This document shows positions 19,097 through 32,489 of a stretch of DNA of 64,000 bases, piece by piece. The stretch lies in the IMG/VR virus record IMGVR_UViG_3300032116_000002; one strand, written 5' to 3'. The notes beneath the pieces are model-generated. The model was not told the origin of the DNA and ran no database searches. It saw only the letters and a list, made by a program, of their open reading frames with translations. The stretch comes from a virus (Duplodnaviria > Caudoviricetes). Both the position numbers and the translations under genes were made by a program. The stretch's first letter is position 1. Every line of letters starts with the position of its first letter.

Positions 19097-19983
19097 ATGT
19101 ACAAAAAAATCACACATTATATTATAGAAGAACATTTTGACGGTGCTAACGCAATTGTAGACAAAATGTTTGCCGAAACAGGTAACAATGTCGCTAATAC
19201 GACAGTCACAACGACAACTACCACAACGGAAACACCGGAGGAAGGCCTAAAAAAAAGTTCATAGTAAAGCCTAGTCTTCCGGATGATAGAGATCATATTT
19301 ACGTACCTATTGGTGGAACTATTCCTGATAGGTTTACTATTAAAAATTTTGATAGTCCCGTAGACAACCAATGGGAACTAGGTAGTTGTAGTGCAAATGC
19401 TTTAGTCAATGCATATGAAAATCTAGTTAATCAATTACATCCAACTAAAGCCGAAGAGTTAAGTAGGCTTTTTGTTTATTACAATACAAGGGCACTTCAC
19501 GAAAATGTTACGGTTGACAGTGGTGCCTATCTTAGAGATACAGTCAAAGCTGTTGAATCATACGGCATATGTACAGAAGATTATTGGCCATACACTCCTT
19601 ATAGGTTTGATCAAAAGCCAAGCACGACTGCATATAATGATGCTAGACAAAGAAAACTGAAAAATTATAAAAGAGTATCAACTGTTGATTCTGTTATAGA
19701 TGCATTGGCTCATAAAAAACCTGTAGTATTTGGTACAACAATATACGGTGATTTTTTAAATCTTAATAGTTATAGTTCAACACTTGTAGAACCTACAACT
19801 AATGACATTAGTTTAGGTGGTCACGCTATGTGTTTTGTAGCATATGATAAACCTAATAAATTATTTAAAGCTAAAAATAGTTTTGGAAAACGATGGGGAG
19901 ATGAGGGATATTGTTATATACCTTTTGACTATATAACAAACTACGGATATGATATGTGGGTGTTTGACTTAGATATGATGTAG
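19097..19983 (+). CDS. Papain-like (C1A) cysteine protease, split by a -1 frameshift at A8 (19249-19256)
   Basis: Frame 2 ORF 19097-19264 has SD AGGAG; frame 1 is open 19198-19983 with no ATG/GTG/TTG before 19705 and encodes PSLPDDRD, NQWELGSCSANA (Q, C), GGHAM (H), KNSFG (N). Confidence 0.8.
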
Positions 19984-19984
19984 T

Positions 19985-20061
19985 TGGTCGGAGTACGAGG
20001 ATTCGAACCTCGGACCCCCTGCTCCCAAAGCAGGTGCACTACCAGGCTGTGCTATACTCCG
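19985..20061 (-). tRNA. tRNA-Pro(UGG)
   Basis: Cloverleaf, loop TTTGGGA, encoded CCA. Confidence 0.95.
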
Positions 20062-20065
20062 AAAC

Positions 20066-20139
20066 TGGTTGCGGGACCCGGAATCGAACCAGGAACTGGA
20101 GCTTATGAGACTCCCGAGATGCCGTTTCTCTATCCCGCG
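20066..20139 (-). tRNA. tRNA-Met(CAU), initiator-like
   Basis: C1:A72 mismatch, loop CTCATAA, CCA. Confidence 0.85.
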
Positions 20140-20146
20140 TCTGTTA

Positions 20147-20419
20147 TTAACCTGTTCTATGAATGATGTGAAAACCAAACTGAGTTTGCACAGGCTCACT
20201 TACTTGTCCTATTTCTAATGCGTAAGTAGCATCTTCAAAGGGCTTAACCATTTGACCTTTACCAAACAAACCTAAATCACCACCATTCTGTCCACTAGGA
20301 CATCTTGAAACTTGTTTTGCCATAGTTGCGAAATCAGCAGCTTGGCTTAGTAGTTGACTCTTTATCATGTTTGCTTGTTCTAAATTTTCTACTAAAATAT
20401 GACTTGCACGAACTTGCAT
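20147..20419 (-). CDS. ppiC: Parvulin-type peptidyl-prolyl isomerase
   Basis: ASHILV, SRCPSGQNGGDLG, QMVKPFE, TQFGFHII. Confidence 0.95.
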   Translation of the reverse strand: MQVRASHILVENLEQANMIKSQLLSQAADFATMAKQVSRCPSGQNGGDLGLFGKGQMVKPFEDATYALEIGQVSEPVQTQFGFHIIHRTG

Positions 20420-20440
20420 AATTTATCCTTGTATGTTAGT

Positions 20441-20638
20441 GTAAGGCTACTCGCTCCCACAAGCCCCTTACTGAGTTGTTGCCCTGTCCACTACATTTCT
20501 CTTTTGGTAAGGTGTAGTTCCAACCTACGACTTTTCTGGCACCCATGTAAGCGGGTTCTGAGGCAGATCGTATGCGCCCTGGCTTTCTGGTTTGCCAACC
20601 ACCCCCATTTCATAACGCAGATGGGACTACGGGATACT
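20441..20638 (-). ncRNA. Candidate structured RNA A (~200 nt), 5' of ppiC
   Basis: GC-rich non-coding stretch with several stems; shares a 17-nt core and covarying flanking hairpins with RNA B. Confidence 0.65.
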
Positions 20639-20716
20639 TGGAGCAACGGGTGAGATTCGAACTCACGGCTTTAGGGTTTTGCAGACCCTTGCATTGGGCC
20701 TCTCTGCCACCGTTGC
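20639..20716 (-). tRNA. tRNA-Cys(GCA)
   Basis: Loop CTGCAAA, U73, CCA. Confidence 0.93.
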
Positions 20717-20717
20717 A

Positions 20718-20912
20718 TTATTTCAATAGTTCAATCAACCTTTGCTTTGATTCTTCTGTCAAGAATAATTCACACTTTACCTGATCGTGTGGGAACTTTG
20801 CAACGTCCCAATGTGTATAGATTCTTAACACTTGAAAATTACTTGGGGTATCACAATTCTGTAACTCTGCATATGTTTTAAATCCATCATTCTCATTCAA
20901 CAAAATTTTCAT
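20718..20912 (-). CDS. Hypothetical protein
   Basis: SD AAGGA before ATG 20912; the longer track call runs into tRNA-Trp. Confidence 0.65.
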   Translation of the reverse strand: MKILLNENDGFKTYAELQNCDTPSNFQVLRIYTHWDVAKFPHDQVKCELFLTEESKQRLIELLK

Positions 20913-20930
20913 TGTAATATCCTTATTGTT

Positions 20931-21004
20931 TGGCGTCCCGGCAGGGATTTGAACCCCGACCAACGGTTTTGGAGACCGGTATGCTGCCGTTACACTACCG
21001 AGAC
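20931..21004 (-). tRNA. tRNA-Trp(CCA)
   Basis: Loop CTCCAAA, CCA. Confidence 0.93.
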
Positions 21005-21012
21005 ATTATACT

Positions 21013-21216
21013 TTACTTGTACTTACTAAGATACTCTTTTGGGTTTATTAAACCCTGTTCGATTTCATTTAATGCAGTTACTACAGGTTTATCTTTGGTG
21101 ACTATTTTAGGGGCATGTCCTGAACGTAATTCACGCACCCTAGCACTAGCGATTAAAACTAAATCATATAAGCCACCTGCTTTTTTTGCTGCTACTTCTG
21201 ATGTTCTACCTTTCAT
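21013..21216 (-). CDS. rpoZ: RNA polymerase omega subunit homologue
   Basis: YDLVLIASARVRELR and KPVVTALNEIEQGLI match omega conserved regions (E. coli FDLVLVAARRARQM / TTVIALREIEEGLI). Confidence 0.85.
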   Translation of the reverse strand: MKGRTSEVAAKKAGGLYDLVLIASARVRELRSGHAPKIVTKDKPVVTALNEIEQGLINPKEYLSKYK

Positions 21217-21235
21217 ATTACTTCCTTATGATGTT

Positions 21236-21309
21236 TGGTAGGGGATAACGGGGTCGAACCATTGACCTTCGCCTTGTAAGGGCGCTGCTCTACCACTGAG
21301 CTAATCCCC
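21236..21309 (-). tRNA. tRNA-Val(UAC)
   Basis: Loop CTTACAA, CCA. Confidence 0.95.
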
Positions 21310-21375
21310 TAGTATTTTTTATTAGGTACGAAATTCTCTATCGGTTGATAGATATTTAAGTGAAGTGATTAAAAA

Positions 21376-21573
21376 TTAATCTGAGACTTTTTCAATTCTT
21401 ACGGACAAATCTTCTTGGGTCAAGAATTTGCTTGGTAGAGTATTGTTATCTCTTTCAGCAATGATTCCGTCAGTGACAGACTTAGGATTATATCTTTCCT
21501 GACCTGTTAAGTCCATAGACTTGTAAAAAATTTCGTTAATGTAGACATTGATTTTCATATAACTATTTATCAC
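21376..21573 (-). CDS. Hypothetical protein
   Basis: ORF between tRNAs; start uncertain. Confidence 0.55.
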   Translation of the reverse strand: MINSYMKINVYINEIFYKSMDLTGQERYNPKSVTDGIIAERDNNTLPSKFLTQEDLSVRIEKVSD

Positions 21574-21585
21574 TTTACATTAAAA

Positions 21586-21668
21586 TGGTGCGCATAGAGG
21601 GACTCGAACCCCCACCCGTTGAGACCAGAACCTAAATCTGGCGCGTCTACCAATTTCGCCATATGCGC
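21586..21668 (-). tRNA. tRNA-Leu(UAG)
   Basis: Long variable arm, loop TTTAGGT, CCA. Confidence 0.95.
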
Positions 21669-21676
21669 ATAATACT

Positions 21677-21760
21677 TGGTGCCCAGAGCCGGACTCGAAC
21701 CGGCACGCCTTGCAGCGAGGGATTTTAAGTCCCTTGTGTCTACCATTTCACCACCTGGGC
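21677..21760 (-). tRNA. tRNA-Leu(UAA)
   Basis: Long variable arm, loop CTTAAAA, CCA. Confidence 0.95.
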
Positions 21761-21769
21761 ATTCTAACT

Positions 21770-21844
21770 TGGAGCGGGTGACAGGGATCGAACCTGCGAC
21801 GAACAGCTTGGAAGGCTGACACTCTACCACTGAGTTACACCCGC
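21770..21844 (-). tRNA. tRNA-Gly(UCC)
   Basis: Loop CTTCCAA, U73, CCA. Confidence 0.95.
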
Positions 21845-21853
21845 ATTACATCT

Positions 21854-21930
21854 TGGTGCCTCCGAAGGGACTCGAACCCCTAACCAACGGATTATGAGTC
21901 CGCTGCTCTGACCGATTGAGCTACAGAGGC
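21854..21930 (-). tRNA. tRNA(CAU), Ile2 or elongator Met
   Basis: Loop CTCATAA, CCA; identity not resolvable by eye. Confidence 0.85.
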
Positions 21931-21968
21931 AATTTAATTTGTTTTTAAAGAACGATTTCAATATGTGT

Positions 21969-21997
21969 ATTATACTGCTAAAAACTTTATTTGTCAA
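21969..21997 (-). promoter_or_regulatory. Sigma70-type promoter TTGACA-N17-TATAAT
   Basis: Perfect consensus just 5' of a five-tRNA block. Confidence 0.9.
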
Positions 21998-22000
21998 CAG

Positions 22001-22225
22001 TTAAACAAAATCATCTGACCCAAAATACTCTGCTACTTTTTCTCTTGCTTCTTTTCTATTCAGTGCAGGAATCTTTACTGTAGCAATATTATTTTTTATT
22101 TTGATGTTAAAAGGAACTATACCATTTGGTGTCCAGTTATCTTCAACACGAACCTTAACAGTAAATTCTTTAAGGTTCATTAATCTTTCAATTACTTGTT
22201 GCGTTAAATCTGATGGACTTTGCAT
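22001..22225 (-). CDS. Hypothetical protein
   Basis: ATG 22225 just after tRNA-Thr. Confidence 0.6.
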   Translation of the reverse strand: MQSPSDLTQQVIERLMNLKEFTVKVRVEDNWTPNGIVPFNIKIKNNIATVKIPALNRKEAREKVAEYFGSDDFV

Positions 22226-22237
22226 AGTTAAGTTAAA

Positions 22238-22312
22238 TGGTGCTGGCAGTAGGAATCGAACCCACAACCTACTGATTACAAATCAGTTGCTCTACCGTTG
22301 AGCCATGCCAGC
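22238..22312 (-). tRNA. tRNA-Thr(UGU)
   Basis: Loop TTTGTAA, CCA. Confidence 0.95.
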
Positions 22313-22504
22313 GTATTCTGTATTACTTAGTCCTACTTGCAATCGCACGTTGAATTTTCATACGATGCTTTGGTCTACATGTTTCAAGCATTTTGGTAAG
22401 TTGTTCTACATTAAGTGGACCTAATTTAGTCTTACCTGTTTTTGTTTTCATTGGATCACGTTTAAAATCTTTTTTTGCACTCATATATCCTCACATAAAA
22501 AACT

Positions 22505-22580
22505 TGGCTCCGGTGGTAGGGCACGATCCTACGACATACGGATTAACAGTCCGCCGTTCTACCAACTGAACTACACCGGA
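22505..22580 (-). tRNA. tRNA-Asn(GUU), atypical T-loop
   Basis: Loop CTGTTAA; T-loop ATCGTGC; CCA. Confidence 0.9.
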
Positions 22581-22609
22581 ATTGACTCTATTCTAACAGT
22601 TAAAATTCT

Positions 22610-22703
22610 TGGCGAAGAGTATTGGATTCGAACCAATGATCCGGCTTTTGACCAGATGCCTTCTTAGCAGGAAGGTGCCTTCGACCAACTCGGCCAACTC
22701 TCC
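22610..22703 (-). tRNA. tRNA-Ser(GCU)
   Basis: Long variable arm, loop CTGCTAA, G73, CCA. Confidence 0.95.
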
Positions 22704-22710
22704 TTAAAAC

Positions 22711-22953
22711 TTAATACTTCTCTGTAATCTTTTCTATTCTATCAAAACTTTGTTTCAATGTCAATTCATATCTAACCTGATTAAGGTTAATTGCATAAAT
22801 TATATAGACACCATAAACAAACAATGCACCTAATATAGTCCAGCCAATTTGCTCACTATCAAGTGTTAGTAAAAAAGCAATTAGCAAAGGAGCAACTGTT
22901 GCTAATACAACCATTATTAATGTTCTTTTTAGTGCAATTAATTTTTCATTCAT
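22711..22953 (-). CDS. Small two-TM membrane protein
   Basis: Two hydrophobic segments; follows promoter 22965-22993. Confidence 0.7.
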   Translation of the reverse strand: MNEKLIALKRTLIMVVLATVAPLLIAFLLTLDSEQIGWTILGALFVYGVYIIYAINLNQVRYELTLKQSFDRIEKITEKY

Positions 22954-22964
22954 AACAATTCCTT

Positions 22965-22993
22965 ATTGTATATCAAACAGGATTTATTGTCAA
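22965..22993 (-). promoter_or_regulatory. Sigma70-type promoter TTGACA-N17-TACAAT
   Basis: Spacer starts ATAAATCC. Confidence 0.85.
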
Positions 22994-23289
22994 CTGTTTT
23001 CTTTGTTGTCATCTTTGTAAAACTTTTCCTGTTTATGTTTCTTTTCTTGCAACGTTTCTTCACCGAAAAACTTTCGAGGATTACCGCACATATAACACTT
23101 TGGATCTCCGCAATTAAAAATCTTTGTTTTGTGGCTACGATGTGGTTGCGTCATAAACGGCATTTTGCTCATAGCAGAACTAAGCTTGTGATATCCATAA
23201 TTCTTAGCTAATTGTAACTGTCTTTTTATCTTTGTTGCTTTTTGATGGAGTCTCTCACTGTGTCTAATTTTATCTGATTCATCTGACAT
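22990..23289 (-). CDS. Basic hypothetical protein with CGDPKCYMC motif
   Basis: SD AGGAGGG. Confidence 0.7.
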   Translation of the reverse strand: MSDESDKIRHSERLHQKATKIKRQLQLAKNYGYHKLSSAMSKMPFMTQPHRSHKTKIFNCGDPKCYMCGNPRKFFGEETLQEKKHKQEKFYKDDNKENS

Positions 23290-23306
23290 ACACCCTCCTT
23301 AACATT

Positions 23307-23397
23307 TGGCGGAAGCGGACGGAGTCGAACCCTCAAGGGCCTATTAAGCCTCAACTGTTTTCAAGACAGGTACCATCGCCAATTGGTTTGCGCTTCC
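23307..23397 (-). tRNA. tRNA-Ser(UGA)
   Basis: Acceptor GGAAGCG/CGCTTCC, loop CTTGAAA, long variable arm, CCA. Confidence 0.92.
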
Positions 23398-23836
23398 TTT
23401 TGTTTCTTGATTTATAAGTTGGTAATTGGGAATCACAATTACTACAAACAAATCTTAAATTTTCTATCCTATTATCATTGTTTATGCCGTTTATGTGATC
23501 TAGTATTAATGTCATTGGCTTACCTTGCCACATTGGTTCTATACCACAAATACCACAAACATAATCAATTAATTTTTTTGCTTTTATCCTTGCTTTAACA
23601 CTATGTCTAGAATAACTAGAATTTTCACAAAACACAACATCATCTGGGTATTTTTGATCGTAATGTTCGGGTCTGCCTGTTTTTAATCCTAAGTTCCATG
23701 GTTTAGCACCTTTTTTTCTACCTGCATTTGGTGAATGAAAATGCTTTATTTTGTTAGGATTATTAACACACGACATTTCATGTGCTTTTAGTGAACCTTT
23801 GTTTTTAATTTCTCTTTGACAATATGTGCAATTCAT
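23351..23836 (-). CDS. HNH endonuclease with N-terminal zinc finger
   Basis: CGIC..LILDHINGINNDNRIENLRFVCSNCD; last 47 nt lie inside tRNA-Ser(UGA). Confidence 0.9.
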   Translation of the reverse strand: MNCTYCQREIKNKGSLKAHEMSCVNNPNKIKHFHSPNAGRKKGAKPWNLGLKTGRPEHYDQKYPDDVVFCENSSYSRHSVKARIKAKKLIDYVCGICGIEPMWQGKPMTLILDHINGINNDNRIENLRFVCSNCDSQLPTYKSRNKRKRKPIGDGTCLENS

Positions 23837-23894
23837 AATAGTATCCTCTACTATTATTTATGCTTTAACGCAAAAAATCGTCAAATAGCTGCGT

Positions 23895-24134
23895 TTAGCC
23901 ATTCTTCCTTTTTATTATCATTGCTACATATGTTCCTGTAAATGCACCTAATAATGCAGGTATCAACATCAAATTATCGTTAACAAAGCTTATTAGAGCT
24001 ATACTATATATTAACATAACGATTGATGCAAGTGTACTGGCAACCAAAGGCTTATCTTCGGCAATAGCTTTTATATAATAGGTATTCACTATATCGGTAA
24101 AAAATACAGCAAAAAATGTGATGATATATGACAT
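23895..24134 (-). CDS. Small three-TM membrane protein
   Basis: Hydrophobic throughout. Confidence 0.65.
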   Translation of the reverse strand: MSYIITFFAVFFTDIVNTYYIKAIAEDKPLVASTLASIVMLIYSIALISFVNDNLMLIPALLGAFTGTYVAMIIKRKNG

Positions 24135-24138
24135 TGGG

Positions 24139-24210
24139 TTAGTCCTGCAGGAATCGAACCTGCATCATTGCAATCGGAATGCAGTATCTTATCCATTAGA
24201 CGAAGGACTA
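24139..24210 (-). tRNA. tRNA-Arg(CCG), divergent
   Basis: Loop TTCCGAT, canonical T-arm, one anticodon-stem mismatch, no exact encoded CCA. Confidence 0.7.
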
Positions 24211-24214
24211 AAAT

Positions 24215-24288
24215 TGGAGCGGGTAGCGAGAATCGAACTCGCAAATAATCCTTGGCAAGGATTCAGGTTACCTTTACATCATACCCGC
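24215..24288 (-). tRNA. tRNA-Gly(GCC)
   Basis: Loop TTGCCAA, U73, CCA. Confidence 0.93.
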
Positions 24289-24296
24289 TTGAAACC

Positions 24297-26207
24297 TTAA
24301 TTAGTTTCTTTTACTTCTGCGTCTACTACATTAGGATCACCTTCTGCTTTTTGTGCGTTTGGATCACCTTCTGGCATTTCTTTATTGCGCTTTTCTGCTT
24401 CATATGTAATAGTTTTGCGATATAGTTCACCGAGTTCTTCAGTGGCTTTGTCCATATCTTCTTTACTATCACCTTTAGCAACTTCTTTGTATTTACTAAT
24501 ACTATCAAGCATTGAAGTTTTTTCTTCTTCAGGAATATAGCCTTCAAGATTTTCAATTTGCTTTTCAAGCATACCAATTTGATTATCCAAACTGTTACGT
24601 GCTTGTACAAGTTCTACAACCTTTTTATCTTCCTCAGCATTTAACTCAGCGTCTTTGACCATTTGTTCAATTTCTTGTTCAGATAATCCAGAACTTGCTT
24701 TGATAGTAATTTGCTTTTCTTTGTTAGTTTTCTTGTCAAGAGCCTTAACTGATAGTATACCATTTGCGTCAATGTCAAATGTTACTTCAATCTGTGGCAT
24801 GCCTCTTGGTGCAGGATCAATGCCCTCTAGTGTAAACTCACCTAGTCCTTTGTTACCTACAACAATTTCACGTTCACCTTGGAAAACTTTAATTGTAACA
24901 GCAGGCTGATTATCGTCTGCTGTACTAAAAGTTTGGCTTGCCTTTGTAGGAATCGTTGTATTCTTTTTGATAAGTTTAGTCATAACACCACCTAGTGTTT
25001 CAATACCTAAACTTAAAGGTGTAACATCCAACAACAGAACATCAGTGCGATCACCACCTAAGACTTGACCTTGAAGTGCAGCACCAACTGCAACTGCTTC
25101 ATCAGGGTTTACATCTTTACGAGGTGCCTTACCAAAAAACTTTTCTACTGCTTCTTGTACTCTTGGCATGCGAGTCATACCACCAACAAGAATCACTTCA
25201 TCAATATCACTGATACTTACACCAGCGTCTTTGATTGCAACTTCACAAGGCTTAATGCTACGTTGAATTAACTCTTCAACCAAACCTTCTAATTTAGCAC
25301 GTGTGATTTTAACGTTAAGATGCTTTGGTCCTGTTGCATCAGCAGTGATATAAGGTAAGCTTACATCAGTCTGTGTTGAACTTGATAGTTCAATCTTAGC
25401 ACGTTCTGCTGCATCTTTAAGTCTTTGTAATGCTAATACATCTTTAGTTAAATCTACACCACTTTCTTTTTTGAACTCATCAACTAGATGATCCATAATT
25501 CTTTGGTCAAAATCTTCACCACCTAAAAATGTATCACCGTTAGTTGATAATACTTCAAATTGTTTTTCACCTTCGACATTAGCAATATCAATAATACTAA
25601 TGTCAAATGTTCCACCACCTAAGTCATAGACAGCAATTTTTCGGTCCTTCTTGTCCTGTTTGTCTACACCGTAAGCTAATGCTGCCGCTGTAGGTTCGTT
25701 AATAATACGCAATACTTCCAGACCCGCAATGCGTCCTGCGTCTTTAGTTGCTTGTCTTTGACTATCATTAAAATATGCTGGAACTGTAATAACAGCCTTT
25801 GTGACTTCTTCACCTAAGAAATCTTCTGCTGTCTTTTTCATTTTACGCAAAACTTCAGCACTGATTTGTGGAGGTGCTAGTTTCTTGTCATTCACTTCTA
25901 CCCAAGCATCACCGTTATCTGCTTCTACAATCTTATATGGCATTAGATCGATATCTTTTTGGACTGCTTGTTCTTTGAATTTGCGCCCAATCAATCTCTT
26001 TGATGCATACACCGTGTTCTTTGGATTAGTAACAGCTTGACGCTTAGCTGGCGCGCCAACAACGATTTCACCGTCCTGCATGTAGGCGATAATGCTTGGG
26101 GTAGTTCTTGCACCCTCGCTGTTCTCTAATACTTTTGGATTTTTGCCATCTATGATAGCAACGCATGAATTGGTAGTACCTAGGTCAATACCTATAATCT
26201 TTGACAT
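24297..26207 (-). CDS. dnaK: Hsp70 chaperone DnaK
   Basis: [35 protein letters not shown], full length 636 aa. Confidence 0.98.
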
Positions 26208-26267
26208 GTTATTTCTCCTTTAATAAGCAAGATTACTTCAGTGCCCGATAGGCGCAACTGAGATATG

Positions 26268-26275
26268 TATTTATA
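26268..26275 (-). promoter_or_regulatory. T4-type late promoter TATAAATA upstream of dnaK
   Basis: Exact match to the T4 late consensus. Confidence 0.65.
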
Positions 26276-26305
26276 CATTATTTTTACTAAAAATACAAAT
26301 ATATT

Positions 26306-26380
26306 TGGTAGCAGGAGAGGGATTCGAACCCCCGATAGCTTCCGTATGAAGGAAGTGCATTACCTCTTTGCTATCCTGCC
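26306..26380 (-). tRNA. tRNA(CAU), third copy (Met or Ile2)
   Basis: Loop TTCATAC, G1:U72, CCA. Confidence 0.8.
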
Positions 26381-26430
26381 ATATACTTTCGTACATTTAT
26401 TTGTTACAAGTAACAAATATATAACTTTAT

Positions 26431-26628
26431 ATGGAAATAGAATTTATTTCATTATACAAACTCGGAGTAGGATGCATCCTAGTGAGGTATGAAGATATTA
26501 TAACAATGGAGTACACTCCACTAGGATATACTCGTATTGAATTTGGGTACGGCGAACATCTTATTGTTGAAGAAGATATAATTTGTATAATGAAAAAAAT
26601 TCAAGCAGCTAAAACGCTAAGTGAATAA
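26431..26628 (+). CDS. Hypothetical protein, antisense to the array
   Basis: Fills the gap between two tRNAs; no motif recognised. Confidence 0.4.
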   Translation: MEIEFISLYKLGVGCILVRYEDIITMEYTPLGYTRIEFGYGEHLIVEEDIICIMKKIQAAKTLSE

Positions 26629-26704
26629 TGGTGCCGCCTGTTGGTTACGCTCCAACCTATCCGGCTCTTCAAACCGGCGCTTTCACTAGATTAGCTTAAG
26701 CGGC
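26629..26704 (-). tRNA. tRNA-Phe(GAA), atypical T-loop
   Basis: Loop TTGAAGA; T-loop AGCGTAA; CCA. Confidence 0.85.
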
Positions 26705-26706
26705 AT

Positions 26707-26783
26707 TGGGGTGAAGGACGGGACTCGAACCCGCAACCACTGGATCCACAATCCAGGGCTCTACCAATTGAGCTACCAACACC
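26707..26783 (-). tRNA. tRNA-His(GUG)
   Basis: G-1, C73, loop TTGTGGA, two U:U pairs in acceptor stem. Confidence 0.9.
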
Positions 26784-26990
26784 ATTGATTATGTTGCACG
26801 CCATTCTACACGACCATACTGGTCTATATGTGCAATACTTTGCATACGTTTGACTTCAACATATTCACGTTTCTCAGTAATAATTTCACCACCACGTTGT
26901 ACTAATTCATTTACTTTAATCTTTGCTACAGAATTAATAGGTTCAAATTTTTTAAACTTGATCTCCATTTTACACCTCCGATTTATAAAT

Positions 26991-27092
26991 ATGTAGTGTA
27001 GCGGTTAATCTAGCACACAAGGATGCCAACGTAAAGAGTTTTCTAGATTTCCTCTATACCTAGTCGAAGGCCAAATTGTCGCTACACTACAT
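26991..27092 (+). ncRNA. Candidate small structured RNA E closed by a 13-bp stem
   Basis: ATGTAGTGTAGCG...CGCTACACTACAT directly after TATAAATA (26984-26991); inner AATCTAG/CTAGATT stem. Confidence 0.5.
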
Positions 27093-27665
27093 CACAGGTC
27101 CATTACCATTTTTAAAACCAACAGTACCGCCTTCTTCTACAATACGTTTGATAACTTCTTCAAACAATATAGGGCGATAATCTGTTTGTTCTACACAAAC
27201 ACAATGATATCTTGGGTCGATTTTATATTCACCGAAAATTTCTGCTTTAACTCTCTGATAATGCAGATGTCCATGAATATTAGTACCGAACCTTGCGAGA
27301 CTATCTGTATGAATAGGAATATGACTTAATATCATTCCATTCATTACATGATAGCCACGAATATCTCTAAAGTATTCAGTGTATTCTTCTAATCTAAAAA
27401 TGTCGTGGTTACCCTTAATAAGAACCTTATCTCCATTAAGCCTTGCTAGAGTTTTAAGTGCTTTACGATTAATCACAACATCACCGAGATGGTAAACTTT
27501 ATCGTTTGGACGAACGGTTTCGTTCCAACGTTTTACCATTTCTTCATCCATCTCATCTGGGTCATCCCAGGGTCTGAGTTTAGTTCCATCATCACGAAGG
27601 AACTTACAAACGCCAGCATGACCAAAATGCGTATCAGAAACCAAAAAGTTTGCTGGCATAGTCAC
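27087..27665 (-). CDS. Calcineurin-like metallophosphoesterase
   Basis: SDTHFGH, LGD, GNHD, HGH motifs. Confidence 0.92.
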   Translation of the reverse strand: MTMPANFLVSDTHFGHAGVCKFLRDDGTKLRPWDDPDEMDEEMVKRWNETVRPNDKVYHLGDVVINRKALKTLARLNGDKVLIKGNHDIFRLEEYTEYFRDIRGYHVMNGMILSHIPIHTDSLARFGTNIHGHLHYQRVKAEIFGEYKIDPRYHCVCVEQTDYRPILFEEVIKRIVEEGGTVGFKNGNGPVM

Positions 27666-27680
27666 TCCTTAAATAAAAAA

Positions 27681-27709
27681 ATTATAACACAAAAACAATT
27701 TACTGTCAA
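27681..27709 (-). promoter_or_regulatory. Sigma70-type promoter TTGACA-N17-TATAAT
   Basis: Perfect consensus. Confidence 0.9.
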
Positions 27710-27710
27710 T

Positions 27711-27787
27711 TGGCACCCCAGGAAGGATTCGAACCTCCGACTCCTGCGTTCGTAGCACAGTACTCTAGTCCACTGAGTTACTGGGGC
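27711..27787 (-). tRNA. tRNA-Arg(ACG)
   Basis: Loop CTACGAA, CCA. Confidence 0.95.
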
Positions 27788-27796
27788 ATATATTGA

Positions 27797-27872
27797 TGGT
27801 GGGGGCTATGGGAATCGAACCCATTTAATCTACTATGTCATAGTAGCGACTAGCCATTCATACCTAGCCCCT
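27797..27872 (-). tRNA. Atypical tRNA-Val(GAC)-like element
   Basis: Good T-arm, anticodon stem and CCA, but A1:C72 mismatch, weak D-stem and loop ATGACAT. Confidence 0.55.
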
Positions 27873-27946
27873 CGCCGACCCGGGGTTTCCCTCCTTGCAG
27901 TCGGTGAAGTATTTATTGCCCAACACCATTAAAAATAAATACAAAA

Positions 27947-28648
27947 ATGCATATACATATATTTGGTCACAGCATTTGTGCCAGAGCAGGTTGGAAACAT
28001 GACAAACCCGAACCTGATCTATTTGTTGATAGATTAATTAAAAAATATAATATACCTAAATCAAACTATCACGCTGTTAATCAAGGCAGTGAAGAAAGAA
28101 TATTATATTTTTTAAAAAAAGTTAAAAAGATTGACTTGGCGATAATCTTCCATGGCACTCCGCAACATTTCTTTTGTCCTGCGTGGTCTAGTGATTTTCA
28201 TTTAGTAGACCAAGACAAATATTGGGAAAATGATTACCCCAGAGATTTGTATTACATGCCTGAAATACTAAAAGATAAACCAAAAGAACCTAATCCTGAT
28301 ATAATATTAGATAAGAAAAATTATCAAAAATCATATGAAAATTTTGTAAAACACTTTTATACACCTGAATTAAATCGCAATAGACACTATGGCGCATTAA
28401 TTCAAATTGATCAATATTTAAATCACAAAAAAATACATGCAATTCATTGTGTACTAAAAAACACATTACCAACTTGGTTCGAGTTTAGTAATGGTATAGT
28501 AGACAATGAACTTGCAGAGTTGCAAAAACAAAACAGTAAGTTCTATACCGGACCTCAAAACAGCGGCAATTTAATCAGTGAAGAAGGTAATATCTACATT
28601 GCTAACAAACTTACTGATTACATAGAACAATTAACTGGCTGGGGATGA
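27947..28648 (+). CDS. Hypothetical protein, possibly SGNH-like
   Basis: HIFGHSICA N-terminus; ATAAATA just upstream; 3' end overlaps tRNA-Gln on the opposite strand. Confidence 0.7.
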   Translation: MHIHIFGHSICARAGWKHDKPEPDLFVDRLIKKYNIPKSNYHAVNQGSEERILYFLKKVKKIDLAIIFHGTPQHFFCPAWSSDFHLVDQDKYWENDYPRDLYYMPEILKDKPKEPNPDIILDKKNYQKSYENFVKHFYTPELNRNRHYGALIQIDQYLNHKKIHAIHCVLKNTLPTWFEFSNGIVDNELAELQKQNSKFYTGPQNSGNLISEEGNIYIANKLTDYIEQLTGWG

Positions 28649-28711
28649 TGGACTCGAACCACCGAATGTCGGAATCAAAATCCGATGCCTTACCAACTTG
28701 GCGAATCCCCA
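28636..28711 (-). tRNA. tRNA-Gln(UUG)
   Basis: U1:A72, loop TTTTGAT, CCA. Confidence 0.95.
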
Positions 28712-28880
28712 ATTAACTTGGTATTACTTTTGGTATATACGGTACATTTCTAGGACCATGTCTTTGCTCAAATAACATACGTGCTTCCTGTAAATCTTTA
28801 GCATAGACACGATCTTTAATATCACCTTGCGGTGTTCTTACTGTAGTTTCATACATTGGCATAACAAACTCCTTAGAGGT

Positions 28881-28908
28881 AAGAAAAGGTAGCTAAGCTA
28901 CCCTTTTC
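28881..28908 (-). terminator. Intrinsic terminator after pqqA
   Basis: GAAAAGGGTAGC-TTA-GCTACCTTTTCTT. Confidence 0.75.
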
Positions 28909-28932
28909 ATTATGTTGATTGAAAATCACTGA

Positions 28933-29004
28933 TTAGCGATTTGCAATGTACATAGTGATTTCAAAACCAAAACGCATATCAGTTGCACTAGGTGTTGTCC
29001 ACAT
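28933..29004 (-). CDS. pqqA: PQQ precursor peptide (23 aa, not in ORF track)
   Basis: MWTTPSATDMRFGFEITMYIANR with ExxxY core; SD AAAGGAGAG; own terminator. Confidence 0.92.
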   Translation of the reverse strand: MWTTPSATDMRFGFEITMYIANR

Positions 29005-29212
29005 GTTACTCTCCTTTGAATTTAAAATACATGTACTGCACATGTATTTAAGAGATTGTACAACACAAAAATGGTACTGTCTATACGCATAGTATTGAAC
29101 GATAGCTAGTGAAAATCATTAAACTTACCATATAGAAACACATTCCTGGATTGTCGTAAAACCCTCCATAGCCCCGAGCGCCATTATTTTTATATTCGAA
29201 TGTGTTTTTATA

Positions 29213-29288
29213 TGGTAGGGGCACAGAGATTCGAACTCTGGACACACGGATTAAAAGTCCGCTGCTCTACCTACTGAGCTATACCCCC
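29213..29288 (-). tRNA. tRNA-Lys(UUU)
   Basis: Loop CTTTTAA, CCA. Confidence 0.95.
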
Positions 29289-29583
29289 ATCATCTTTCGA
29301 GGTTTGTCGCTTTCCTTATTCATCTTTATCACCTTTATTTCTCATGCTTCTTGTTTTAGCACTTCTTTCTGAGGATTTGACTGCCTCACGAATGAAATGT
29401 CTTTCACGTTCCTTATTAAAACTAAGGATCGCAATAGCCTTTTCTGCTTTCTTTATTTTTACTGCCTTTGGATCGTAACCCATATTAATCTCCTATTTAA
29501 AATTTCTATCAATTAATGCTAACAACCAAATAACTCCGATAATAACTGCCATTGCCCCATTGTAGTTCTCCTTATAGTTATAT

Positions 29584-29667
29584 TGGTGGGGTGTACTGGG
29601 ATCGAACCAGTCATGTCAAAGACGGCGGATTTACAGTCCACTGCATCACCATTGATGCTTCCACCCC
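29584..29667 (-). tRNA. tRNA-Tyr(GUA)
   Basis: Long variable arm, loop CTGTAAA, CCA. Confidence 0.95.
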
Positions 29668-29669
29668 AT

Positions 29670-29875
29670 TTAATGCTCTGACAGACCTCGGAGGTAATTA
29701 TACCGCATCAAGCACCGAGTAGTCTCAGTACCATCACACACGGCCTCCACCCTCTCCACGACAGGTCCCGTTCTCGCATTGCCAGCGCACTTTCGGTTTA
29801 AAGTGTACCACCCGTAGTTGTCATACTACTTCTCATCGTGCGGGTCACACTATCTGCTGACTAAGCAGAACGTTC
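29670..29875 (-). ncRNA. Candidate structured RNA C (~205 nt) between tRNA-Asp and tRNA-Tyr
   Basis: Nested stems TCTGCT/AGCAGA, ACCCG/CGGGT, GTAGT/ACTAC, CACTTT/AAAGTG, GGAGG/CCTCC, CTGAG/CTCGG. Confidence 0.6.
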
Positions 29876-29952
29876 TGGCGACACCAAGGGGGTTCGAACC
29901 CCTGACCTCCGCCGTGACAGGGCGGCATTCTAACCAGCTGAACTATGGTGCC
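29876..29952 (-). tRNA. tRNA-Asp(GUC)
   Basis: Loop CTGTCAC, G73, CCA. Confidence 0.95.
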
Positions 29953-30103
29953 ATTGTTCTACACTCTGCTACTAACTTACTTTTTACAATTGTTAATCTT
30001 TTATTCCAAACATACTCTGCATCTCTACATTCTTTTTCTGTGGCATACTTTGAGTATTGGGTATAGTTGTCAGGAAACTGTAACCAAAATACTAAAATCC
30101 AAG

Positions 30104-30568
30104 TCATCTCACACCCAAATAATGTTTGTTTACATAGCTTTGTATTGCTTGATGACTTACATTACTGATATGCACGCCTGGAGCAACATTACGCCTACCT
30201 GAACTATCAAAGTAATTTCTTGTTTCTATACCATAGACACCATAGTTAACCTGTGCTGTATGATATGCACCAATTGTAACAATAGAGTAGGGCTTATGTT
30301 TTACGTTTTTTAAAACATGTTTAATGCTTTCTGCACCCTTACTATACCCATATAACTGATACTGTTTATTATTTCTATTAATAAACTTTACTGCTAAATG
30401 TGCTTGATTCCAACTATATGTCATTGCACATGCATTCTGCTTTTTTGCATATTGATTAAAGGCACGACTATCAAATAAATCATTGATACCTTTGAAACCA
30501 ATAACGAACTTGTCACAGGCAAAACTGTTCTGTGTTACAAGTAATAAAATAAAAAATAATGTTCTCAT
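30104..30568 (-). CDS. Exported protein, possible minimal alpha/beta hydrolase
   Basis: Signal peptide; GYSKG nucleophile-elbow-like motif. Confidence 0.6.
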   Translation of the reverse strand: MRTLFFILLLVTQNSFACDKFVIGFKGINDLFDSRAFNQYAKKQNACAMTYSWNQAHLAVKFINRNNKQYQLYGYSKGAESIKHVLKNVKHKPYSIVTIGAYHTAQVNYGVYGIETRNYFDSSGRRNVAPGVHISNVSHQAIQSYVNKHYLGVR

Positions 30569-31118
30569 ATTAGTTTTGTAGCCTATACTATATGCCTAAC
30601 TCAACAGCTTTACACGTGTTTACTGTTTATTGTTTCGGTTACATAACGCCTGCGCCAGCCTCTGTGCTTACAGGCTACAAAATTAATATGCTTAGGCCAC
30701 GCTTTTCCACGGTCGCCCCCAAGCTGGAGTTGTTGCCCTGTCCGAACACTAAAGGACCTTTGCCGCGTAGTGTCCACGCTGCTATGTTGTCTGAAACACC
30801 GGAGACACCACATCGAAATGCAGAGTCTATGTTTCGCTAAAGGTGCCATAGCCACCTGGACTTTATCGTATTACCAAACGCTACTTTCAGGAAAGTAGTA
30901 ACCGGAATCTTGCTTCTTTGATTCGGCGAGCTGTCCTACTTCAAGCAGGCTCACACTGGTCGCCCTGAGGTGAAGCACCTCAGTTACTCTAGATTAATAT
31001 TAATGCTAACAAGGACAGGCCTATTACATGATACCGAAGGCATTACTGTATCAAACCCTTGCTAAACTCTTTTCAGAGACAGAACGCACATTTTCTGTTT
31101 TGTTTTTAATCTTCATTT
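30566..31118 (-). ncRNA. Candidate large structured RNA B (~500 nt)
   Basis: Own sigma70 promoter, elevated GC, many hairpins, no credible long ORF, 17-nt core shared with RNA A. Confidence 0.65.
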
Positions 31119-31124
31119 GCCGCT

Positions 31125-31153
31125 AGTATAACAGCAAATCGATTTATTGTCAA
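31125..31153 (-). promoter_or_regulatory. Sigma70-type promoter TTGACA-N17-TATACT
   Basis: Spacer starts ATAAATCG; faces RNA B. Confidence 0.85.
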
Positions 31154-31157
31154 ACTT

Positions 31158-31234
31158 TGGTGCCTGCTCTTGGAATCGAACCAAGCACCCCCGCGTTATC
31201 AACACGGTGCTCTAACCGAATGAGCTAAGCAGGC
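31158..31234 (-). tRNA. tRNA-Ile(GAU)
   Basis: Loop TTGATAA, CCA. Confidence 0.95.
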
Positions 31235-31238
31235 AAAC

Positions 31239-31314
31239 TGGCACACCCAACCGGATTCGAACCGGTGTATTCACCGTGAAAGGGTGATGTCCTAGGCCTC
31301 TAGACGATGGGTGC
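31239..31314 (-). tRNA. tRNA-Glu(UUC)
   Basis: Loop CTTTCAC, G73, CCA. Confidence 0.95.
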
Positions 31315-31348
31315 GTAAAACTGTTAAAGAACTAAAAATAATTCAGAC

Positions 31349-31377
31349 ATTTTATCTCGTTTTGGATTTAATGTCAA
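31349..31377 (-). promoter_or_regulatory. Sigma70-type promoter TTGACA-N17-TAAAAT
   Basis: Read directly; faces tRNA-Glu/Ile. Confidence 0.8.
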
Positions 31378-31386
31378 GTTGTTGTT

Positions 31387-31462
31387 TGGTGGAGGTGACA
31401 GGGATCGAACCTGCGACCTACGGCTTGCAAAGCCGCCGCTCTCCCAACTGAGCTACACCCCC
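31387..31462 (-). tRNA. tRNA-Ala(UGC)
   Basis: G3:U70, loop TTTGCAA, CCA. Confidence 0.96.
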
Positions 31463-31472
31463 AAATTAAATC

Positions 31473-31549
31473 TGGCCTGACCAGAGGGATTCGAACCCCC
31501 GACTTACTGCTTAGAAGGCAGTTACTCTATCCAACTGAGTTATGGTCAG
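31473..31549 (-). tRNA. tRNA-Arg(UCU)
   Basis: Loop CTTCTAA, CCA. Confidence 0.95.
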
Positions 31550-31558
31550 AAAGTAATG

Positions 31559-31587
31559 ATTGTACTATAACTGCGATTATTTGTCAA
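31559..31587 (-). promoter_or_regulatory. Sigma70-type promoter TTGACA-N17-TACAAT
   Basis: Immediately 5' of the first tRNA of the array. Confidence 0.85.
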
Positions 31588-32489
31588 GCCTGAAGAATTG
31601 TATATTTGTCAATTTTCATTTTATCAATTTGTTCCAATATTTTTGTTGCTAAAATTGCATTAGTTTCAGCGGTTAAGTGTATTGGACTTACTCCCCAACG
31701 GTGTCGAGGATCCATATAAACAAATTGATCGTCAAGTTCTACTACTGGTAAATCGCTTCCATGCTTTCTTTTAAAATGCTGAACCATAACATCTAACCAA
31801 CGTAATACATAAGGTCCATTTTTAGGATCATTCATGAATCTGTAGTTGTGATAGAATGGTATGTTTTCTTTTAGATTTATTGTGTACGGAACAATTTTTT
31901 GCTTGCTAATGTAACACTTTGATGCTAGTTTTGTTTTGACTAAAATAATTCTGTCCTGAAACAGTTGTTTCATCTGTACAGCAAAATCAACTAACAACTC
32001 CTTTGTTCTACCCATTACTTCTTCGGTATCAAAATCAAAATAACATTGTGTTTTACTAATAATATCTTTGTTTACCCAATCCACATCTAACAATTTGTGA
32101 AACTGGGGAACCAAACTAAAACATTCATTTTTAGTAATAAACCTTGTGTAAAGTTCATTGCTAAAATTGATCACCATAATGTCTGTAGAAACTACATTTT
32201 CTTTTAGAAATTTATAGTAAGGAAATTTTGTTAATTCAACATAAGCCTGATCATACAAAAAACTTTCATGAGGATGCTCAGGGTATTGCTCTTTCATATA
32301 GGTAAACATACGCTCAGCCATACTACTAGGCTGAGCGTACAGTGACATTAAACTTGTACCATGTGGAGGATACTTGTTTATTAAAACATTCCCACCTGCT
32401 AGGTCATATCTTCTAATTACACTTGGACTATGTAATGAATCCCATAAATCACATGCACCAAAGTGAAAAATTCTAGGTCTTAAAATCAT
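31584..32489 (-). CDS. Hypothetical protein (301 aa)
   Basis: Long ORF coupled to the HNH gene; no family recognised. Confidence 0.75.
   Translation of the reverse strand: MILRPRIFHFGACDLWDSLHSPSVIRRYDLAGGNVLINKYPPHGTSLMSLYAQPSSMAERMFTYMKEQYPEHPHESFLYDQAYVELTKFPYYKFLKENVVSTDIMVINFSNELYTRFITKNECFSLVPQFHKLLDVDWVNKDIISKTQCYFDFDTEEVMGRTKELLVDFAVQMKQLFQDRIILVKTKLASKCYISKQKIVPYTINLKENIPFYHNYRFMNDPKNGPYVLRWLDVMVQHFKRKHGSDLPVVELDDQFVYMDPRHRWGVSPIHLTAETNAILATKILEQIDKMKIDKYTILQA

Follow-up and report, generated by a model that had tools for sequence, protein, structure and literature searches.

A family of compact, multi-pseudoknot RNAs in the tRNA gene clusters of large uncultivated phages

Two sites on the minus strand of the window (the whole 64,000-nt stretch of phage DNA that was analysed) are best read as genes for one family of compact, multi-pseudoknot non-coding RNAs carried in phage tRNA operons, whose stable product would be cut out by tRNA-processing enzymes; judging from sequence comparison, we put the probability of this reading at about 55%. 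That the family is a real family of structured RNAs is nearly certain. It is a ~200-nt, previously uncatalogued, multi-pseudoknot RNA (185–220 nt among members) found inside tRNA gene clusters of large uncultivated phages. The two copies and their immediate surroundings are as follows.

20438–20636, minus strand: RNA copy A (A-like subfamily), ~199 nt; covariance model (CM) R1 scores 185.5 bits over 20438–20635
20473–20489, minus strand: core of copy A, a single-stranded GGACA followed by the mini-hairpin GGG N AACA N CUC
20639–20716, minus strand: tRNA-Cys, an array member directly upstream of copy A
30687–30908, minus strand: RNA copy B (B-like subfamily), ~221 nt, aligned over its full length to the A-like CM
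30727–30743, minus strand: core of copy B, identical to that of copy A
31125–31153, minus strand: candidate sigma-70-like promoter, a consensus match only (11/12 positions, with TG), ~210 nt upstream of copy B

The core is the 17-mer GGACAGGGCAACAACTC, whose identity at the two sites, remarked on in an earlier note on this DNA, is exact. It occurs exactly twice in the window; two GGACAGGGCAACAACTC matches were reached in none of 100 dinucleotide shuffles of the window, and a search of the window allowing up to three mismatches found no further site. The earlier note pictured a reusable 17-nt module with two hairpins set in otherwise different RNAs, a picture not borne out by copies A and B, whose homology runs from end to end. 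A CM built from A-like sequences only aligned model positions 1–198 to 30908–30688 of copy B (33.9 bits, E ~2e-9), and since this alignment covers the full length, A and B are paralogues of one ~200-nt RNA. They are 44.8% identical, against 81% and 97% for orthologues of each in other phages, which agrees with the earlier view that no recent duplication is involved. A-like and B-like copies occur side by side at no fewer than 10 loci; the two are old paralogues kept in the same array. The alignments present the 17-mer as the best-conserved part of two whole RNAs rather than as a free-standing module. It varies within the family, reading GGACAGGGUAACAACUC in most members fetched through other anchors, with variants known at positions 7, 9, 12, 13 and 14. 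Its 3' two-thirds form a small hairpin (G6-C17, G7.U16, which is A7-U16 in variants, and G8-C15) in which 101 members have G.U at the 7-16 pair and 6 have A-U. This mini-hairpin is 99.4% paired in alignment A7, which contains 110 sequences of all classes.

More than 110 distinct relatives were collected from IMG/VR and metagenome contigs. All 25 exact matches to the 17-mer in IMG/VR have homologous flanks; a metagenome scan added 63 family matches after removal of two false positives, and ~55 were obtained through other anchors. A degenerate pattern gave at least 120 matches, and among the matches listed 95 of the 106 new ones passed the stem check. Some 185,000 prokaryote genomes yielded a single relative, on a 3-kb MAG contig, and none was found in 50,697 cultured-phage records. 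The NrdA proteins nearest to that of the window phage belong to large myoviruses infecting Xanthomonas, Ralstonia and Stenotrophomonas. With cmscan, neither copy gave an Rfam match at the gathering threshold in a scan of the window, and no match to the RNA appeared at E values up to 10 in scans of 19900–31700 and 20420–20640; absence of either copy from Rfam 15 is an outcome the earlier note had allowed for.

Covariation supports about 11 helices, among them one that joins the 5' end to the 3' hairpin loop and a long-range pseudoknot of 5–7 bp. Alignment A4 (21 A-like sequences) is 84.4% paired, compared with 71.8% after shuffling (none of 500 shuffles was as high) and 35–54% in slid controls, and compensatory changes are present at 32 of the 55 pairs. 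The corresponding values for alignment A6 (39 B-like sequences) are 85.2%, 78.1% and 36–46%. A7 is 80.5% paired versus 62.1% when shuffled, with a covariation score of 0.378 versus 0.130. PK1 and P4 were left out of the model behind A7, and these omitted helices are still paired there (81% and 89.5%). When pairing partners were permuted, the values observed for PK1, PK2, P3, P4, P6 and the 3' stems were never reached; two region pairs used as negative controls gave z of about +1 and −1. Through its frequent G.U pairs the fold is specific to the minus strand, on which the tRNAs lie. Such compensatory pairing in homologues of both sites bears out the earlier proposal that selection acts on RNA structure. 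Single-sequence folding was no better than that of shuffled sequences (z = +0.15 and −0.70), which is expected for pseudoknots but lends the fold no support. The helices of copy A are arranged as follows.

20441–20471, minus strand: 3' hairpin with outer stem 20466–20471/20441–20446, inner stem 20459–20463/20450–20454, a conserved GG/UAG internal loop and the PK1 loop 20455–20458
20490–20518, minus strand: P6 hairpin (ACUACA/UGUAGU)
20527–20571, minus strand: PK2, the P4 loop ACGAU 20567–20571 with GUCGU 20527–20531, enclosing hairpin P5 (20541–20556)
20561–20630, minus strand: 5' domain, made up of S1, S2, P3 and P4
20627–20630/20617–20620 and 20621–20625/20604–20608, minus strand: S1 and S2, an H-type pseudoknot in the 5' domain
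20594–20597/20580–20583 and 20576–20579/20561–20564, minus strand: P3 and P4
20631–20634, minus strand: 5' strand of PK1 (UCCC), partner of the loop GGGA 20455–20458

The equivalent elements located in copy B are these.

30690–30724, minus strand: 3' hairpin with outer stem 30718–30724/30690–30696 and an inner stem with a bulged A
30705–30708 with 30904–30907, minus strand: PK1, loop GGAA with UUCC, 86.5% paired in A6
30744–30775, minus strand: P6 hairpin (GGACACUA/UAGUGUUC), 8/8 pairs compensatory in A6
30781–30852, minus strand: PK2, the P4 loop 30847–30852 with 30781–30786, across a variable insert (~30787–30841)

The hairpins that the earlier note had placed on either side of the core are real in both copies, on the 5' side as P6 and on the 3' side as the outer stem GUAAGG/CCUUAC in copy A and GCUUGG(G)/(C)CUAAGC in copy B. 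Their predicted covariation is found as well. P6 is 79.5% paired in A7 with 5/5 pairs compensatory, and in each of three classes (A, B and D) none of 2000 partner permutations reached the observed value. For the 3' outer stem, pairing is 97.6% with 4/6 pairs compensatory among the A-like sequences and 85% with 5/7 compensatory among the B-like ones (A6); the inner stem of copy A is 89% paired with 4/5 compensatory (A4). PK2 is 96% paired in A4 (4/5 compensatory), 84.5% in A6 (4/6 compensatory; permutation z = −11.5) and 91% in A7 (5/5 compensatory), with 0/2000 permutations reaching the observed value in all three classes (A, B and D). Pairing in the 5' domain of copy A amounts to 82% for S1, 84% for S2 and 95% each for P3 and P4 (A4). 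According to the covariation, PK1 draws the first nucleotides of the RNA to the loop of the 3'-terminal hairpin and thereby closes the molecule. Its strands change in concert (UCCC/GGGA, UUCC/GGAA, CCCC/GGGG, CCUC/GAGG and CACUACC/GGUGGUG); they are 89% paired in A4, and in the partner-permutation test none of 5000 permutations reached the observed value.

Both copies lie in an array of 24–27 tRNAs on the minus strand (19985–31549). Copy A begins 2 nt behind tRNA-Cys, and 18 nt separate its end from the start codon of ppiC. Across the family, at least one same-strand tRNA lies within 3 kb of 102 of the 108 members and at least three in 90 of the 108, and no opposite-strand tRNA was seen. The RNA starts 0–11 nt after a tRNA in 38 of 110 members, ends 1–12 nt before one in 22 and does both in 10; in 72 of 110 no tRNA directly abuts the 5' side. 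tRNA-Met is the commonest upstream neighbour (15/40 abutting cases), and only 15 of 108 members encode an ACCA tail. Complete phage genomes of 355–400 kb carry one copy per separate tRNA cluster, and some of these copies exactly fill gaps of 207–210 nt between tRNAs. The earlier observation that each copy lies 5' of a protein gene is correct as to position; its significance does not stand, because the genes downstream differ and in 22 of 110 members a tRNA comes next instead. Downstream genes are heterogeneous and fall into many unrelated clusters, with ppiC behind only 2 of 22 A-like members, and no partner protein consistently adjacent to members was found. An ORF starts within 150 nt downstream of 15 of the 22 A-like members, mostly at 11–25 nt, so that for this subfamily a role in cis is conceivable.

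The family RNA shares its coding strand with the tRNAs, and the boundaries of its structure, 5' as well as 3', fall at the ends of adjacent tRNAs. Its transcription would proceed as part of tRNA polycistrons or start at promoters in the array, and the candidate at 31125–31153 likely marks the start of the copy B transcript. Its release would fall to the tRNA-maturing enzymes, with RNase P cutting at the 5' end of the next tRNA and an endonuclease plus trimming acting at the 3' end of the previous one, and the released RNA would persist as a stable, nuclease-resistant particle. We give slightly better than even odds to a stable product acting in trans. Together with the GG/UAG internal loop, the near-invariant GGACA and its mini-hairpin might form a putative surface to which some protein or RNA involved in translation or tRNA metabolism binds, in which case the RNA could serve the phage tRNA pool in trans as a cofactor or decoy; any one specific target is unlikely. 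Against excision stand the members that have no abutting 5' tRNA and the 210-nt leader of copy B, a leader that just 5 of the 59 other B-like members have in common with it.

A cis-acting element of the tRNA precursor, which insulates tRNAs, guides or blocks RNase E and 3' exonucleases or stabilises the polycistron and is functionless once released, is a possible but rather unlikely alternative. It would account for boundaries that abut tRNAs, for the 0–5 single-stranded nucleotides that remain behind the upstream tRNA once PK1 has formed, and for the single copy per cluster even where clusters are 120–165 kb apart. A spacer or insulator, however, should need neither ~11 covarying helices nor a near-invariant 17-nt core nor two diverged paralogues side by side; most tRNA junctions in the same arrays also lack the RNA, and most members do not lie directly behind a tRNA.

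It is unlikely that the family represents a new functional class of phage RNA acting on the tRNA system itself, as a ribozyme or an RNA-only particle. If so, it could process, protect or sequester tRNAs or neutralise host defences directed at tRNAs. Each tRNA cluster of a jumbo phage would then have its own copy, and A and B would be cooperating diverged paralogues. A ribozyme that cleaves itself at its own 5' edge, like the HDV-like, hatchet and glmS ribozymes, or acts on tRNA precursors in trans is improbable. The 5' structural boundary 0–5 nt from the tRNA 3' end, the capture of the first nucleotides into the core by PK1 and a highly knotted fold with few but strongly conserved unpaired nucleotides would fit such an activity. 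Most copies, however, have no tRNA directly upstream, and self-cleaving ribozymes of these types leave a cyclic phosphate upstream, which on a tRNA trailer is of no help to CCA-end maturation. Neither copy matches an Rfam model of a known self-cleaving ribozyme (hammerhead, HDV-like, twister, pistol, hatchet or glmS) at E values up to 10. A resemblance to helix P4 of RNase P RNA is refuted: the CR-V-like stretch of copy A (CAGAACCCGCUUA) belongs to a local hairpin, of which it makes up the 5' arm and loop, and this hairpin covaries (ACCC/GGGU, CCCUUCGG/CCGAAAGGG and GCCC/GGGC), the CR-I-like GAAAG is unconserved, and no Rfam RNase P model matches.

The RNA is very unlikely to be the protomer of an RNA-only quaternary assembly of the ROOL or GOLLD kind, in which PK1-type pairings would join molecules and A and B might co-assemble. 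Covariation does not distinguish intramolecular from intermolecular pairing, A-like and B-like pairs recur, and the niche is the same (phages, beside tRNA islands, often after tRNA-Met). Yet the RNA is 3–4 times smaller than ROOL or GOLLD, to which it has no CM similarity, and the PK1 strands of each copy fit one another but not those of the other copy, which argues against head-to-tail pairing of A with B.

The earlier note had named a riboswitch-like element among its suggestions. Such a sensor would control ppiC downstream of copy A and a 154-aa ORF downstream of copy B; the diverse downstream genes and the tRNAs that follow 22 members, 10 of which sit between two tRNAs, make this role highly improbable. 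A complex conserved fold would suit an aptamer, the 3' hairpin often stands close to an ORF start in A-like members, and a Shine-Dalgarno-like motif precedes the start codon in all four downstream sequences read directly, including that of copy A. Still, neither a single functional class of downstream gene nor an expression platform was found among members, no conserved terminator or anti-Shine-Dalgarno alternative pairing was seen, and an outer-stem sequence able to mask the ppiC Shine-Dalgarno motif is confined to copy A and L004. The reading that there is no RNA at all, only a DNA-level site (promoter, origin or recombination site) or a small protein gene, is close to refuted: ORFs of 51–82 aa in a mechanical list overlap both copies and one of six frames is open end to end in 36 of 107 members, but stops interrupt all six frames in the other 71, B-class lengths show every remainder modulo 3, the orientation of the element is strictly that of the tRNAs, and ~11 helices carry compensatory changes and strand-specific G.U pairs.

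Among known systems, the manA motif (RF01745), reportedly described by Weinberg and colleagues in 2010 as a structured RNA near tRNAs in cyanophage genomes, had been an early lead; it was dropped, with no Rfam model match for either copy at E values up to 10 (221-nt query). RNA C and RNA D of phage T4 (species 1 and 2) are likewise small stable RNAs directly behind a tRNA in a phage tRNA region, where rnaD starts 1 nt after tRNA-Arg and rnaC 6 nt after rnaD. They differ from the family RNA in length (139 and 119 nt), and rnaC ends in a T-arm-like hairpin that the family RNA lacks. CM R1 found no match in the whole T4 genome (NC_000866), nor was the core motif found in the T4 tRNA region with three mismatches allowed. 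tmRNA is a stable RNA in which several H-type pseudoknots follow one another; tRNA enzymes mature it, and some phages encode it in their tRNA arrays. In contrast, the family RNA lacks both an acceptor/T-arm tRNA-like domain and a reading frame for a tag, and the partner of its 5' end is a hairpin loop instead of the 3' end; ARAGORN and Rfam made no tRNA or tmRNA call at 20438–20636 or 30687–30908.

ROOL and GOLLD, the latter being RF01998, typically measure 500–800 nt, ROOL being ~580 nt long. Membership of the family RNA in either was rejected, as the Rfam CM of neither matched at the gathering score or at E values up to 10. Both are encoded by phages or prophages, often beside tRNA islands, with one GOLLD located downstream of tRNA-Met, and cryo-EM structures have revealed ornate multi-pseudoknot folds for these RNAs, which have no identified protein partner or known function (PMC12286853). 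The family RNA differs from them in its core motif and helix layout and in size (185–220 nt versus ~800 nt for GOLLD and ~580 nt for ROOL). What it shares with them is context and not homology: it too is phage-encoded and adjoins tRNA islands.

The 17-nt core GGACAGGGCAACAACTC is identical at 20473-20489 and 30727-30743 on the minus strand. These are its only two occurrences in the 64-kb window; no further site was found there at up to three mismatches, and two matches were obtained in 0 of 100 shuffles. The hairpins flanking each core, as described in the earlier note, are present in the sequence at both sites. The note's reading of the two sites as a shared module gave way to a different picture: both are whole homologous RNAs, copy A (20438-20636, ~199 nt) and copy B (30687-30908, ~221 nt), alignable end to end. 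A covariance model of 198 positions, R1, built solely from 21 sequences of the A-like subfamily, scored copy A at 185.5 bits and, with filters off, matched copy B over its full length (30908-30688) at 33.9 bits (E ~2e-9). The window contains no third copy, the next R1 match reaching only 6 bits. Identity between copies A and B is 44.8%, against 81% (A) and 97% (B) for each copy with its nearest orthologue in other contigs, in line with the note's view that no recent duplication is involved. Judged by sequence comparison, the two are old paralogues.

The exact 17-mer was found in 25 IMG/VR contigs, all 25 with homologous flanks. A metagenome scan added 63 family matches, with two false positives removed, and searches with subfamily-specific 5' motifs contributed ~55 additional members. 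A degenerate core-plus-hairpin pattern gave at least 120 matches in IMG/VR; among the matches listed, 95 of the 106 new ones passed a stem check. The family comprises more than 110 distinct members. The deduplicated set used here has 108 members, split into three types: A-like (22, copy A among them), B-like (63, copy B among them) and D (23). All can be aligned from a common 5' start through the 3' hairpin. The invariance of the 17-mer is only apparent, an artefact of fetching by the exact 17-mer, because the ~55 members retrieved through 5' motifs carry cores other than the window's; the commonest core among members fetched without the exact 17-mer is GGACAGGGUAACAACUC. Run on 100 loci, R1, despite its A-like origin, returned 110 hits and recovered all three types at full length. 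Two copies occur in 10 of the 100 loci, and nine or ten of these combine an A-like with a B-like copy, as in the window; the second copy at L219 scores 59.5 bits, in the D-type range, and its class is uncertain. The B-like copy mostly comes first in the direction of transcription. D-type loci have a single copy each.

Two-copy loci (A-like/B-like spacing 0.3-10 kb, same tRNA array): L020, L106, L212, L213, L219, L227, L230, L236, L247 and the window

Among prokaryote genomes (one per species, ~185,000), the pattern searches gave 58 and 74 matches. Save for one 3-kb contig, these fall in coding sequence and are no more numerous than chance predicts; a bacterial origin was rejected on this ground. 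The exception, L290 (CAISPN010000008.1, 3,011 bp), is the sole true member in that collection and was binned into the MAG of an uncultured cyanobacterium. Mis-binning of a phage fragment is the probable explanation, and the cyanobacterial bin is at best a weak indication of host. Cultured phages in INPHARED gave no blastn match even at E up to 1. R1 found nothing in T4, and nothing in Xanthomonas phage X1, Ralstonia phage RSP15 or Stenotrophomonas phage YB07, three cultured phages with NrdA related to that of the window, a weak negative as the pre-filter let through no candidates.

The structural elements were derived by hand and then assessed by counting. PK1 is a pseudoknot joining nucleotides 2-5 to the loop of the 3' hairpin (UCCC/GGGA, UUCC/GGAA, CCCC/GGGG, CCUC/GAGG or CACUACC/GGUGGUG). 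The 5' end folds into an H-type pseudoknot, S1/S2, reduced to a hairpin in B, and is followed by the hairpin P3. The loop of hairpin P4 pairs with a segment 35-65 nt downstream in a long-range helix of 5-7 bp, PK2, which encloses the hairpin P5 or, in B, a variable insert. P6 is the 5' hairpin of the earlier note; the core consists of a single-stranded GGACA and a mini-hairpin of 3-4 bp; and the 3' hairpin contains an outer stem (the note's 3' hairpin), a conserved GG/UAG internal loop and an inner stem. This amounts to about five pseudoknot-type interactions per 200 nt.

Compensatory changes in A-like, B-like and all-class alignments substantiate the selection on RNA pairing that the note had proposed. 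In the 21 A-like sequences (plain MAFFT), 84.4% of cells are paired vs 71.8% after shuffling, and 0 of 500 shuffles were as high as the observed figure; compensatory changes occur in 32 of 55 pairs, and pairing falls to 35-54% when the partners are slid by 1-3 columns. For 39 B-like sequences the figures are 85.2% vs 78.1%, with slid controls at 36-46%, and all eight P6 pairs show compensatory changes. Across all 110 hits, aligned by fitting to the model, pairing reaches 80.5% vs 62.1%, with a covariation score of 0.378 vs 0.130; PK1 and P4, both deliberately kept out of the model, are paired at 81% and 89.5%. An alignment-tolerant permutation test set the energy of the duplex formed by the two strands of one sequence against the energies obtained with permuted partners. 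For PK1, PK2, P3, P4, P6 and the 3' stems, the observed energy was reached by no permutation; the two region pairs taken as negative controls had z near +1 and -1. Two more pseudoknots, one between the pre-P3 junction and the P3 loop and the other an 'alpha' helix interleaved with P6, pass only across classes. The fold is specific to the minus strand because it contains many G.U pairs. Single-sequence MFE folding did not set the copies apart from random sequence, which is unsurprising for a knotted fold, and RNAalifold retrieved little from a global MAFFT alignment; both results are attributed to pseudoknots and misalignment. Thermodynamic stability was dropped as support, the z-scores not being significant. 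The family is unlikely to encode protein: in 71 of 107 members every one of the six frames is interrupted by stops. These data establish a family of real, widespread, strand-specific and highly pseudoknotted RNAs.

The note had also called for an Rfam scan and had likened RNA A to the manA motif. At gathering score, Rfam 15 reported only tRNAs in the window. At E up to 10, nothing relevant appeared in the whole array, in the D-type relative L003 or in copy A searched alone, the setting with the laxest filters; manA itself had no match at either level. Within the reach of the Rfam models, these empty searches exclude manA, GOLLD, ROOL, RNase P and tmRNA as well as the known ribozymes and riboswitches. 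The idea of an RNase P-like P4, prompted by CAGAACCCGCUUA in copy A, was rejected, the segment being a covarying local hairpin. No homology to T4 rnaC/rnaD was detected, and a full-text literature search with the core sequence returned unrelated primers only. In some D-type members (for example L005, L098, L130, L258 and L266) ACCA directly follows the 3' outer stem, like a tRNA 3' end. This trait is not family-defining because it is present in a minority (10/23 D, 3/22 A-like, 2/63 B-like).

The window is phage-like, with tail-fibre, class Ia RNR, Hsp70 and radical-SAM genes, and its NrdA is closest to those of large myoviruses of Xanthomonas, Ralstonia and Stenotrophomonas. Both RNAs lie in a tRNA array together with the following features.

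19985-31549, minus strand: tRNA array, 24-27 tRNA genes
30909-31118, minus strand: leader between a promoter-like site and copy B, 210 nt, with a hairpin at 30965-30983 and a possible 21-codon ORF
27709-27681, 21997-21969, 31587-31559, 31377-31349, 31153-31125, 22993-22965 and 22764-22736, minus strand: promoter matches TTGACA-17-TATAAT, 11-12 of 12 positions
23310-23397, minus strand: tRNA-like element, 88 nt, Rfam tRNA-Sec model 44.6 bits, below the 47-bit cut-off
26632-26704, minus strand: tRNA-like element, weaker Rfam tRNA match, 43.2 bits
27800-27872, minus strand: tRNA-like element, weaker Rfam tRNA match, 29.7 bits
29587-29667, minus strand: tRNA-like element, weaker Rfam tRNA match, 35.2 bits

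None of the four tRNA-like elements is called by ARAGORN. At 24297-26207 on the minus strand, midway through the array, lies a full-length Hsp70/DnaK gene whose 636-aa product is 67% identical to proteobacterial DnaK. The seven perfect or near-perfect promoter matches all lie inside the array on the tRNA strand; only their quality and strand bias are notable, because the total count is not above shuffle expectation. One near-consensus sigma-70-type match lies ~210 nt upstream of copy B. The intervening leader falls outside the conserved RNA, since only five of 59 B-like members, very close relatives (89-100% identity), share it. A 540-nt RNA B extending to the promoter at 31153 was rejected for the same reason, and GGCCUA (30693-30698), its candidate long-range partner, is already engaged in the covarying 3' outer stem.

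Copy A begins 2 nt past tRNA-Cys and stops 18 nt short of ppiC. Across the family, a same-strand tRNA lies within 3 kb of 102 of 108 members, at least three do so in 90, and an opposite-strand tRNA in none (0/108). The 5' start is 0-11 nt (mostly 0-5) past a tRNA 3' end in 38 of 110 cases, the upstream neighbour being most often tRNA-Met; the 3' end is 1-12 nt ahead of the next tRNA in 22, and tRNAs adjoin both sides in 10. Complete IMG/VR genomes of 355-400 kb have one or two copies. Where copies are 120-165 kb apart, each lies in a separate tRNA cluster; some copies precisely occupy a 207-210 nt gap between two tRNAs. The RNA limits coincide with tRNA boundaries, and the RNA genes travel with phage tRNA clusters. 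In one complete 355-kb genome (G002), the cluster holding a family copy also has a tRNA with anticodon CUA, labelled tRNA-Pyl by ARAGORN (L279:2232-2305), possibly an amber-suppressor tRNA in a jumbo phage. Downstream genes vary, ppiC lying behind only two of 22 A-like members. A conserved partner gene was rejected, as no neighbouring protein family is constant; recurring neighbours are a 90-aa protein without known function (28 loci), a metallophosphoesterase-like protein and an RNaseH_like protein.

The RNAs of this family would be co-transcribed with the tRNAs and excised by tRNA-maturation nucleases, and closure of the 5' end by PK1 may keep them stable. We favour, with a probability of about 0.55, a stable RNA that acts in trans and would use its conserved core and internal loop to bind part of the translation or tRNA machinery. 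That the RNAs are purely cis-acting processing or stability elements is unlikely. A ribozyme is less probable again, and an RNA-only assembly like ROOL or GOLLD is very unlikely. Still more doubtful is a riboswitch, against which speak the heterogeneous downstream genes and the members followed by a tRNA rather than a protein gene. A DNA site or coding gene is scarcely credible, being contradicted by the compensatory changes.

To our knowledge, large structured RNAs without known function are rare; such classes, once solved, have been ribozymes, riboswitches or RNP scaffolds. At ~200 nt, the RNAs are of a size suited to chemical probing, crystallography and cryo-EM, and the R1 model and the model-fitted 110-sequence alignment (A7) make the family directly testable. 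Tests for membership in ROOL, GOLLD, T4 RNA C/D, manA, tmRNA, RNase P and known ribozymes all failed; the RNAs are therefore filed as a new family within a known theme, unexplained structured RNAs in phage tRNA islands. Most similar in kind are ROOL and GOLLD, phage RNAs by tRNA islands that have many pseudoknots and no known function, and T4 RNA C/D, stable RNAs of unknown role directly after a tRNA. The family adds one more such RNA and strengthens the case for a broader RNA toolkit in these islands.
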